Source of the DNA: a virus
Taxonomy: Duplodnaviria; Caudoviricetes
Length of the DNA stretch: 64,000 nucleotides
Virus record (IMG/VR): IMGVR_UViG_3300033120_000864
Coordinates: 1 to 64,000 of that record
Strand: one strand, 5' to 3'
Position 1 is the stretch's first letter, and every line of letters starts with the position of its first letter. Made by a program: the position numbers and the translations under genes. Below the pieces are notes generated by a model. That model ran no database searches. It worked only from the letters and a program-made list of their open reading frames with translations, and had not been told where the DNA came from. Below, piece by piece: positions 10,965 through 15,943 of this stretch.

Positions 10965-11357
10965 ATGGGAAAAATTATAGGCTTTGGTATTTTAGCTTTC
11001 GTTTTTCTAACAGGACTTATAACATTAGCTATGTGGGGATTTCCACAATATAATGTATATTCTGCTAGAAAAGAAGGAGAAGTATTACTGGCACATGCAA
11101 GAAGTTCTAAAGAAGTAGCTGTACAAGAAGCAAAAGCAAAGATGGAATCAGCTTCAATGCTTGCTGCTGCAGATACTATTAGAGCTCAAGGTGTAGCAAC
11201 ATCTAATAAGATTATTGGACAGTCTCTTAAAGATAATCAGGAATATCTTACATGGTTATGGGTAGATAATATGGACAAGACACAAAATCAAGTCATATAT
11301 ATACCAACAGAATCAGGTGTTCCAATTATGGAGGCTGGCAGATTTAAACATCAATAA
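10965..11357 (+). CDS. SPFH/band-7-like short membrane protein
   Basis: TM plus Ala-rich coiled coil, YLTWLW, VIYIPTE. Confidence 0.6.
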   Translation: MGKIIGFGILAFVFLTGLITLAMWGFPQYNVYSARKEGEVLLAHARSSKEVAVQEAKAKMESASMLAAADTIRAQGVATSNKIIGQSLKDNQEYLTWLWVDNMDKTQNQVIYIPTESGVPIMEAGRFKHQ

Positions 11358-11358
11358 T

Positions 11359-11589
11359 ATGATAAGTGCTAAAGAAGCAAGAAACACTATAAATCTTCAA
11401 TTAGACGCCAGACTAAGAAGAGACTTACTCACAGTTGAATCACAAATTGAAACTGCTATTAGTGCAGGAAATGCATATATTTATATAGCAAAAGGTGGAT
11501 TTCAAGATCTAGCTAGAGTAAAGAGTAAGTTAACAGATGCAGGCTATTCAACATCAGAAGATGGTGCATGGCTAAAAATAAGCTGGTAA
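11359..11589 (+). CDS. hypothetical protein (paralog of 3565-3810)
   Basis: MISAKEAR start, C-terminal ISW. Confidence 0.65.
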   Translation: MISAKEARNTINLQLDARLRRDLLTVESQIETAISAGNAYIYIAKGGFQDLARVKSKLTDAGYSTSEDGAWLKISW

Positions 11590-11601: not shown

Positions 11602-11630
11602 AAGGGTGATGGAGAAATCTGTCACCCTTT
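11602..11630 (+). terminator. intrinsic terminator
   Basis: aagggtgatgga-gaaa-tctgtcaccctt. Confidence 0.65.
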
Positions 11631-11642
11631 AAAAGAAAAATA

Positions 11643-11713
11643 GGAAATACTATAGTTTAAGGAAAGAATAGTTATTAATAAAAGGTGGAGTTCAATTCTC
11701 CAAAAGTATTTCC
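11643..11713 (+). ncRNA. tRNA-like RNA with collapsed anticodon arm
   Basis: ggaaatact/agtatttcc acceptor, D-arm tagtttaaggaaagaat, T-arm tggag-ttcaatt-ctcca; no proper anticodon stem-loop. Confidence 0.55.
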
Positions 11714-11727
11714 TTTTTAATTTATAT

Positions 11728-12180
11728 GGGGGTGTATATGTATTGATTGGCGGAGAACGATAGATAATTAGGAGAGTGAATGATATAACCACTCTAAAAA
11801 ATGTATCAAAAATAGAAATGACAATAATAACGTTTCAACAACTGAAGATTTATCTTCAACAACTGTAGATGATATATTTGCCTTCATAGATATGACAGGT
11901 GAAGAAGATATCAGAGTAACTGAACAGCCTGAAAAGGTTGAGATGGTACTTGTAGAAGAAGACTATGTCTAATTTTCCTACACTAGAATTCTAACTAGAT
12001 AAAATGAAATAATGCTTTTGAATATTTTACTTAGAAAATATTCTGGTGGATAGTCGCTAGGCATACCTAGCTGCCCTATTATTTTGGAGAGATGAATAAG
12101 ATTAAATCTCTATCCTAATCCTATAAATAAATTATTTGTAAGTTACTGAACAAGACCACGCGTCGCTGCGTGCACCTCCA
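11728..12180 (+). ncRNA. ssrA: tmRNA
   Basis: GGGGGTG/CACCTCC-A acceptor with G3:U pair; pk1 agagtg/cactct plus tgatata/tgtatca; tag ORF 11820-11972; 3' GAC then T-arm. Confidence 0.88.
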
Positions 12181-12184
12181 CTTA

Positions 12185-12733
12185 TTATGAATTAACAGAT
12201 GTATTAATTAATAAACTAATAAATTCTTTGGTTTGTTCCTTAGTATATCTGTTTTTCATAAGATTTATCGGAAGAGAAATGAATTCAATATTTCCTTTAA
12301 CATAACCCTTAGTAGAATCAATTCTGTCTACTGATGCATATAAATACCAATCAAGTTCCTTATTAACTGCACCATCACTATGACATCTAAGTTTTAATTT
12401 AAAGTTTGTATATGGACAAATTCCTTCTTGTAATTCCCATTGATCTTTTAAATCCTGAAGTGTTACATTTTTATCTTTTAATCTATTGGAATTTTTAATA
12501 GATTTAAGATATATTTTAAACATCTTAAATGGATTTTCTTTTTGATTATTTCTATTATATTCAGTAAGATTAAAAGTACCTCTCAATTCTTTAGGTATTT
12601 TATTAATATCAGCTGCACATTTAATTGAGCAAAAAGATTCTCTATTCTTTTTAATATTCCTTAAGTATTCAGATTCGTCTTTATAATATTCTTTATTACA
12701 TTTAGGACAAGTAAGCTTAGTTTGTTTTCTCAT
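12185..12733 (-). CDS. HNH-like homing endonuclease
   Basis: CPKC, FCSIKC, CPYT, SVDRIDSTKGYVKGN. Confidence 0.85.
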   Translation of the reverse strand: MRKQTKLTCPKCNKEYYKDESEYLRNIKKNRESFCSIKCAADINKIPKELRGTFNLTEYNRNNQKENPFKMFKIYLKSIKNSNRLKDKNVTLQDLKDQWELQEGICPYTNFKLKLRCHSDGAVNKELDWYLYASVDRIDSTKGYVKGNIEFISLPINLMKNRYTKEQTKEFISLLINTSVNS

Positions 12734-13229: not shown

Positions 13230-13604
13230 ATGAAGAAAAGAGAAGAATGGAACTCCCAAGAGGTCATTGATCAAATGGAGAGAGATAAGAAGATAGTAGC
13301 TGCTTATTTCGCTAAAATAGACTCCTCAAGAAGTAGAAAGATAGATTTTCAACTTACTTTAGATGACTATATCAAACTTCGTAAAAAGAAAAAGTGTTAT
13401 TATACAGGAGTAGTATTGGATGAAGAACATCCAGGAGCTCCTAATGGTTTTACTTTAGATAGAATAGACTCTACTAAAGGATATACCTATGAAAACACTG
13501 TCCCATGTGCTAATAAAGTCAATCAAATAAAAGCTGTCTTTGAGAAAGACTTTGAGATGGCTCAACAAATTATTAAGAAAATCACAAAACCAAAAACAAA
13601 ATGA
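13230..13604 (+). CDS. HNH-like endonuclease
   Basis: CYYTG, TLDRIDSTKGYTYENTVPC; same motif as 12185-12733. Confidence 0.75.
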   Translation: MKKREEWNSQEVIDQMERDKKIVAAYFAKIDSSRSRKIDFQLTLDDYIKLRKKKKCYYTGVVLDEEHPGAPNGFTLDRIDSTKGYTYENTVPCANKVNQIKAVFEKDFEMAQQIIKKITKPKTK

Positions 13605-15847: not shown

Positions 15848-15924
15848 GGATCCTTAGTTTAACTGGCAAAACTGCTTATTCAGAGAGGGATAAGTGTTTT
15901 TGGGTTCGAGTCCCAGGGGATCCT
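15848..15924 (+). ncRNA. tRNA-like RNA with non-canonical anticodon arm
   Basis: ggatcct/gggatcc acceptor, D-arm gttt-aactggca-aaac, T-arm ttggg-ttcgagt-cccag; extended stem gcttattc/ggataagt with purine loop agagag and no U33. Confidence 0.65.
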
Positions 15925-15943
15925 CTAATTAAAATCAAAAAAC

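Follow-up and report, generated by a model that had tools for sequence, protein, structure and literature searches.

A highly diverged phage tmRNA gene with a predicted 50-codon acidic tag, missed by standard finders

The locus and its surroundings

The IMG/VR phage record IMGVR_UViG_3300033120_000864 comprises 129,807 bp with a GC content of ~31%, and its first 64 kb (64,000 nucleotides, referred to here as the window) were analysed. The phage likely infects Bacteroidota. Between position 11589, where a gene ends and a terminator-like hairpin follows, and position 12185, at which the minus-strand gene for an HNH endonuclease terminates, the plus strand contains no open reading frame of at least 40 aa; the sole ORF listed in this gap is a GTG-initiated one of 56 aa on the minus strand (11622-11792). 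Comparison with related RNAs confirms that the plus strand of the gap holds, at 11728-12180, a real, highly diverged tmRNA that standard finders miss. It would be transcribed within an RNA island in which a tRNA-like element, the tmRNA, the HNH gene on the opposite strand and a tRNA-Arg follow one another. The features of the locus are listed below; G001 is a related phage and L033 a locus of a further lineage, both described in the next section.

11643-11713, plus strand: tRNA-like element, ending 14 nt before the tmRNA; its fold shows an acceptor-like stem of 9 bp and a canonical T-arm, but no anticodon arm
11728-12180, plus strand: whole tmRNA gene, 453 nt up to the discriminator A, with CCA to be added post-transcriptionally
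11728-11734, plus strand: 5' strand of the acceptor stem, GGGGGTG; 7/7 pairs with 12173-12179, including G3:U70
11735-11749, plus strand: D-loop analogue (10 nt, no GG), then the 5' strand of P2a, aligned with GAUUAG in G001 and GACAG in L033
11760-11773, plus strand: 5' strands of P2b and P2c, pairing with 12131-12139 and 12119-12123
11774-11808, plus strand: PK1, a clean H-type pseudoknot; S1 of 5 bp (11774-78/11790-94), S2 of 7 bp (11781-87/11802-08)
11820-11972, plus strand: tag frame without a start codon; resume codon GAC, 50 codons, TAA stop at 11970-72
11952-11981, plus strand: P5-like helix, 8/9 pairs, with the last codons and the stop in its loop; predicted for the window sequence only
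12020-12043, plus strand: 9-bp hairpin with loop ACUUAG; read by hand, G001 has the same loop and 4 compensatory stem changes, while the pair table, in which the G001 coordinates are off by one, gives 5/8 pairs and 2 compensatory columns
12086-12118, plus strand: last hairpin and UAUCCUAA motif (12111-12118); the hairpin stem is fully paired (5/5) in all five lineages although its sequence differs
12119-12155, plus strand: 3' strands of P2c, P2b and P2a; the last letters ahead of the T-arm are AAGAC
12157-12172, plus strand: T-arm with a CACGC/GCGTG stem (12157-12161/12168-12172) and a 6-nt loop, GUCGCU
12173-12180, plus strand: 3' strand of the acceptor stem, CACCTCC, and discriminator A (12180), followed by CTT, not CCA
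12185-12733, minus strand: HNH endonuclease gene with PHROG endonuclease and HNH matches; its stop codon lies 5 nt past the tmRNA 3' end

An element comparable to the upstream tRNA-like one, likewise with a 9-bp stem, lies directly after the tmRNA CCA in G001 (L024 1865-1935). The inner parts of the two elements differ, and both may help RNase P/Z to process the ends of the tmRNA. On the other flank of the window tmRNA, a minus-strand scan picks out the T-arm hairpin as a terminator-like structure for the adjacent HNH gene. Insertion of that gene may have removed an encoded CCA; a second HNH gene is located at 13230-13604.

Just upstream of the RNA island, a gene at 10965-11357 encodes a 130-aa membrane protein of a family that is very widespread in phages and Bacteroidota and that some sources annotate as an HflC/stomatin-like regulator of protease activity; in G001 the gene is not linked to the tmRNA, and a functional tie is unsupported. 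The flanking ATPase and this 130-aa SPFH-like protein have homologues whose surroundings were inspected at 21 loci, and neither a tmRNA nor similarity or synteny was found there; both proteins are widespread and are no markers of kinship. Elsewhere in the genome, ARAGORN reports a tRNA-SeC(tca) at 15848-15925 of the window and a tRNA whose anticodon has four bases (taac) at genome positions 124104-124197, which may be suppressor or non-decoding tRNA-like genes. Stop codon usage in long ORFs is TAA 100, TGA 21 and TAG 5.

Relatives and shared architecture

With default settings, ARAGORN finds three tRNAs and no tmRNA in the window. The Rfam tmRNA model RF00023 gives no match at its gathering threshold (47 bits) and none at E up to 10 on a 900-nt region, and a search of the phage's own genome is likewise negative. 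The check by ARAGORN or Rfam that the sequence-only reading had suggested is thus negative at standard thresholds. At a threshold of 80%, ARAGORN reports exactly 11728-12181 with the identical frame and stop, a call that is weak on its own because five other sites in the genome are reported as well. The 453-nt RNA folds better than 100/100 shuffles (z = -3.7), and an nhmmer profile built from G001, L033 and L034, with the window left out, has a single match in the 130-kb genome, at 11737-11840 (E 1.8e-5).

Five lineages were compared, the relatives coming from other uncultured phages, with one close relative, G001. This phage was the one true relative that emerged from a search with the large terminase (TerL 68% identical), and blastn of the window RNA against it gives collinear matches. 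Its homologue (L024 1469-1865, 397 nt) runs from GGGGGTG to CACCTCC, followed by an encoded ACCA, and scores 13.7 bits on the Rfam tmRNA model, aligned over its full length. About 40% of positions differ between the two RNAs; PK1 is nearly the same in both, and the T-stem differs in sequence yet pairs. There is no HNH gene at the tmRNA 3' end of G001, where the CCA is encoded.

A pattern derived from PK1 led to a third lineage, represented by L033 in IMG/VR and by L034 and L037 in metagenomes. The L033 tmRNA (12057-12468, minus strand) reaches 76 bits on the Rfam tmRNA model (E 2e-28); its tRNA-like domain is of textbook form, with a loop of 7 nt (UUCGAAU) and an encoded ACCA. Default ARAGORN reports neither this tmRNA nor that of L024; the miss of L033 is perhaps due to its 38-codon tag. 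A 3'-domain pattern led to two further Rfam-positive phage groups, B (L086, L092, L093) and C (L099, L100, L091, L088). Rfam scores of the L033 group and groups B and C range from 65 to 126 bits; default ARAGORN finds groups B and C, except for the truncated copy L088, and misses the L033 group. All three share with the window RNA the 3' signature UGGA...UAUCCUAA...GCNCCUCCA, the geometry of P2c and the last hairpin, and long tags (17-38 aa), to which L033 adds the PK1 sequence. Unlike the window RNA, they have canonical T-loops and pass Rfam, and the tags of two groups end in MAA and those of one in TVA.

Upstream of the L033 tmRNA (~12470-12500, minus strand), a terminator-like hairpin is followed by TATTTTTG, located ~10 nt before the mature 5' end. 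The -7 promoter motif of Bacteroidota is TAnnTTTG, which TATTTTTG matches; the promoter-like match hints at a Bacteroidota host and at an independent promoter for the L033 tmRNA.

In the viral, metagenome and genome collections searched, the PK1 sequence signature of the window RNA recurs only in phages G001 and G002. Among 32 million bacterial and archaeal genome contigs, neither the PK1 nor the 3'-domain pattern occurs in a tmRNA context; across genome contigs and metagenomes, the PK1 pattern gave, beyond L034 and L037, only chance matches in coding sequence, and the pattern TTTACTTAGAAA..TGGTGGA likewise matched only coding sequence by chance. A blastn search of 50,697 GenBank phages returned no match for the window RNA and none for L033, and the exact 27-nt 3'-end pattern has no match in IMG/VR. 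As a reference, 32 tmRNAs were drawn from across the phylum to which a Puia genome belongs (Bacteroidota, the presumed host phylum). When the phage tmRNAs were compared with these 32 by nhmmer, nothing was found beyond the tRNA-like end of L033, and nothing for the window RNA.

Particular features are shared with Bacteroidota tmRNAs (RF00023) all the same: the GGGGGUG/CACCUCC acceptor stem with G3:U70 and A73, the GAC before the T-arm, a CUAA..UGUAG-type P2 strand, and a PK1 followed by a start-less, G-initial frame that begins with Asp-Asn-Asn (e.g. DNNYSYRLAA). The acceptor stem, starting with GGGGGTG, is identical in 18/32 of the sampled tmRNAs. They differ from the window RNA in their canonical 7-nt T-loops (32/32) and in their short tags of 8-10 aa, ending in LAA, MAA or LVA.

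The predicted helices are maintained across the phage lineages. Over nine helices in the window RNA, G001 and L033, 138/142 positions form canonical pairs, against 57-79/142 after displacement of the 3' strand by 1-3 nt. Compensatory changes occur in 22/50 columns (T-stem 4/5, P2b 5/7, P2c 3/5, last hairpin 4/5; P2a-c together 10/15), and PK1 of G001 shows G-C to A-U in S1 and A-U to U-A in S2. Because the helices had partly been picked by eye, the test was repeated with fixed rules: strands were taken at set offsets from CCUCCA and from the UAUCCUAA motif, which is invariant in all phage members, and pairs were counted from these explicit anchor-defined coordinates. Each of the five lineages has at nt 41-45, just before PK1, an exact complement of the five nucleotides that follow UAUCCUAA, and in each the T-stem (5/5), the last hairpin (5/5) and the acceptor stem (7/7) pair completely with lineage-specific sequences. 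The MAFFT alignments (A1-A4) misplace several strands, which makes RNAalifold on A4 uninformative. Since the helices hold in both the pairing and the anchor tests, the predicted order of acceptor stem, D-loop analogue, G.A pairs, P2a-c, PK1, message, hairpins, P2 return and T-arm is the architecture of a tmRNA. The claims of a phage tmRNA and of a well-formed PK1, made from the window alone, are thereby borne out.

The tRNA-like domain combines conserved and aberrant elements. The alanine identity elements G3:U70 and A73 are kept in all relatives, with a compensatory change from U-A to C-G in the L033 acceptor stem. Tandem G.A/A.G pairs are retained (11745-46 with 12154-55), followed by UUG pairing with CAA at 12151-12153. 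The T-loop is atypical, as had been noticed at the outset: its six nucleotides do not match the canonical 7-nt UUCRANY and cannot form the standard T-loop motif. In G001 the loop comprises 9 nt, in L033 and groups B and C the canonical 7 nt; a GG in the D-loop is present in L033 and absent from the window RNA and G001. The canonical T-loop and the D-loop GG would have been lost together in the lineage of the window phage and G001. The absence of an encoded CCA, also recognized early on, contrasts with the ACCA of G001 and L033; group B lacks the CCA as well and is Rfam-positive, so that its absence does not disqualify the window RNA.

The tag frame and the predicted peptide

Several observations support GAC 11820 as the predicted resume codon. 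It is located 11 nt after PK1, compared with 10 nt in G001 (GCA) and 9 nt in L033 (GGC); in all three PK1-sharing lineages the open frame starts with a G-initial codon and has an A at -4, and all tmRNAs examined, phage and the 32 of Bacteroidota, resume on a G-initial codon. Only the GAC frame stays open in all lineages, the other two window frames being interrupted there by 5 and 8 stops; under a composition model, the chance of an open frame of this length is P = 0.015. At their beginnings, the frames of the window and L033 can be aligned (Asn-Val ... Ser-Thr), the two being separated by in-frame insertions and deletions, and the sole difference between L033 and L034 within the tag is synonymous. 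At the peptide level, similarity between the window and G001 is marginal (shuffle p 0.047) and not significant for the other pairs, including L033; BLASTP of the tags gave no matches. Conservation is much stronger for the frame than for the peptide. The resume codon of the sequence-only reading is supported by homology, and the tag frame, which that reading wished to see aligned among related phages, is conserved there.

The tag, which that reading had described as long, acidic and without an Ala-Ala degron, is indeed unusual in composition: 15 of its 50 residues are Asp or Glu (30% acidic) and two are Lys or Arg. It ends in Val-Glu-Glu-Asp-Tyr-Val, so that an (L/M)AA degron end is absent and only the last residue is hydrophobic; the claim of an acidic Asp-Asp end was overstated. 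The 32 Bacteroidota tags start with A, D or G, measure 8-10 aa and end in LAA (22), MAA (9) or LVA (1), that is, in LAA or MAA in 31/32. The window tag is about five times longer and shares its Asp-Asn-Asn start with DNNYSYRLAA, which occurs in 8/32. The tags of the phage relatives are 26 codons long in G001 (end Ala-Ala-Ile), 38 in L033 (Met-Ala-Ala), 33 in group B (Met-Ala-Ala) and 17-21 in group C (Thr-Val-Ala); that of Bacillus phage G has 13 residues and ends in Gln-Val-Ala. With the charged alanine, the window tag would amount to 51 residues, above the range of 8-35 residues given in a review for known tmRNA tags (PMC8012679).

Among phage tags, this combination of length, acidity and a non-LAA end has been seen before. 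The tmRNA of mycobacteriophage Bxz1 and its cluster, which Hudson, Lau and Williams 2014 (PMC4131195) include among phage ssrA genes, resembles that of the window in being phage-borne, located among tRNA genes and without a reported phage SmpB; its tag is likewise long (25 aa), 28% acidic and devoid of basic residues, and ends in ALV rather than in a host-type LAA. In contrast to the window RNA, that of Bxz1 is detected by both standard finders (74 bits with Rfam; ARAGORN at default settings); the window RNA differs in its 6-nt T-loop, a tag twice as long and a phage likely of Bacteroidota. The two tags show no significant similarity.

Possible function and alternative explanations

The locus is probably a working, strongly diverged tmRNA of an AT-rich phage, and its mode of action may be pictured in the following manner. 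The transcript would be trimmed to its 5' GGGGG end and to the discriminator A, perhaps with the help of the tRNA-like element, and the host would add the CCA, as its absence from the gene implies. Host AlaRS could then charge the RNA through G3:U70 and A73, both of which are present. The window phage has no SmpB gene (none was found in G000, G001 or G002), which suggests the use of host SmpB; together with EF-Tu, it would deliver the RNA to stalled ribosomes. Translation would resume at GAC 11820, add Ala and 50 residues to the nascent chain, and end at the UAA in the hairpin loop. The tag may have grown from a short Bacteroidota-like one (start DNN...) into a long acidic peptide, losing its (L/M)AA end on the way. 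Given such a tag, the rescue step has probably been kept, and the hand-over of the product to a ClpXP-type route probably weakened or redirected; that the lost (L/M)AA end fits rescue altogether without ClpXP-type degradation is speculative. The tagged products may then be spared, the peptide may be functional and the RNA may compete with host ssrA for SmpB, as the sequence-only reading had proposed.

The most serious alternative is that the tmRNA is decaying or has been repurposed and does not perform trans-translation, acting at most as an SmpB-binding sponge that inhibits host rescue. Such a role has been proposed for mycobacteriophage DS6A, whose TLD-only tmRNA is described by Hudson et al. 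2014, who also cite titration of SmpB by a TLD-like molecule (PMC4131195). The DS6A RNA is, like that of the window, tmRNA-derived and phage-borne, and may act on host trans-translation via SmpB. The non-canonical T-loops of the window RNA and G001, the absence of a D-loop GG and the non-encoded CCA point in the same direction, since together they could mean that aminoacylation or the elbow fold has been lost; the window RNA moreover has no Rfam score, and an HNH gene abuts its 3' end. Yet the message part is missing from DS6A, whereas PK1, a long open frame and the helices further downstream are all retained in the window RNA, and a sponge needs neither the pseudoknot nor the frame. Although ~40% of positions differ between the window RNA and G001, all tested helices are kept through compensatory changes, G3:U70, A73 and the tandem G.A pairs persist in both, and in RNAs of 28-34% GC both long frames have remained open while the other frames are full of stops. 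These compensatory changes and open frames since the divergence of the two phages argue for continued use and leave decay or a sponge as a rather unlikely explanation.

Two further alternatives carry much less weight. Resumption at AUG 11818 would yield a 16-residue peptide, unless that ORF is an ordinary small gene. This frame, which the sequence-only reading had kept as an alternative, draws on the arrangement UAG-AA-AUG, with U and A at -5 and -4, which mimics the UAG-UC-GCA of E. coli (compare Miller et al., PMC2481249), and on an AUG at the same offset in G001. It stops after 3 codons in L033, however, the window and G001 peptides are unrelated, and it is the long frame that aligns at its 5' end with L033 through in-frame insertions and deletions; with G-initial resume codons in every phage and Bacteroidota tmRNA examined, the AUG frame is very improbable. 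Harder still to believe is that there is no tmRNA at all, the GC-rich ends being a chance stem together with the terminator of the convergent HNH gene, and the frame being open by chance or belonging to a small protein gene that has gone unrecognised. The failure of the default finders, the scanning of the T-arm hairpin as a minus-strand terminator and the five additional sites from relaxed ARAGORN are what such a view would expect, but it is already contradicted by the homologous RNA of G001, which ends in ACCA without an HNH neighbour, by the graded series that leads up to Rfam-positive tmRNAs, by the specificity of the profile match to 11737-11840 and by the covariation of the helices.

If the locus is a working tmRNA, a more far-reaching interpretation may be entertained, though a rather unlikely one: this tmRNA lineage would work without the T-loop/D-loop elbow, and a short degron would have been turned into a 50-residue acidic peptide with a function of its own, e.g. 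to preserve rescued fragments in a soluble, undegraded form or to mark them for another partner, while ribosomes are freed on mRNAs cut by host defence nucleases.

ARAGORN, the tmRNA caller of phage annotation pipelines, misses the window RNA, G001 and even the Rfam-positive L033, and Rfam misses the former two, so that tmRNA counts for such phages are too low. The non-canonical T-loops of two phages that keep all other tmRNA features raise the question of how much of the elbow AlaRS, EF-Tu and SmpB need. The tags form a series from 10 aa in the hosts through 17-38 aa in the relatives to 50 aa in the window, with ends changing from MAA via AAI to DYV, and this graded series could be used to test whether phages want ribosome rescue without proteolysis.
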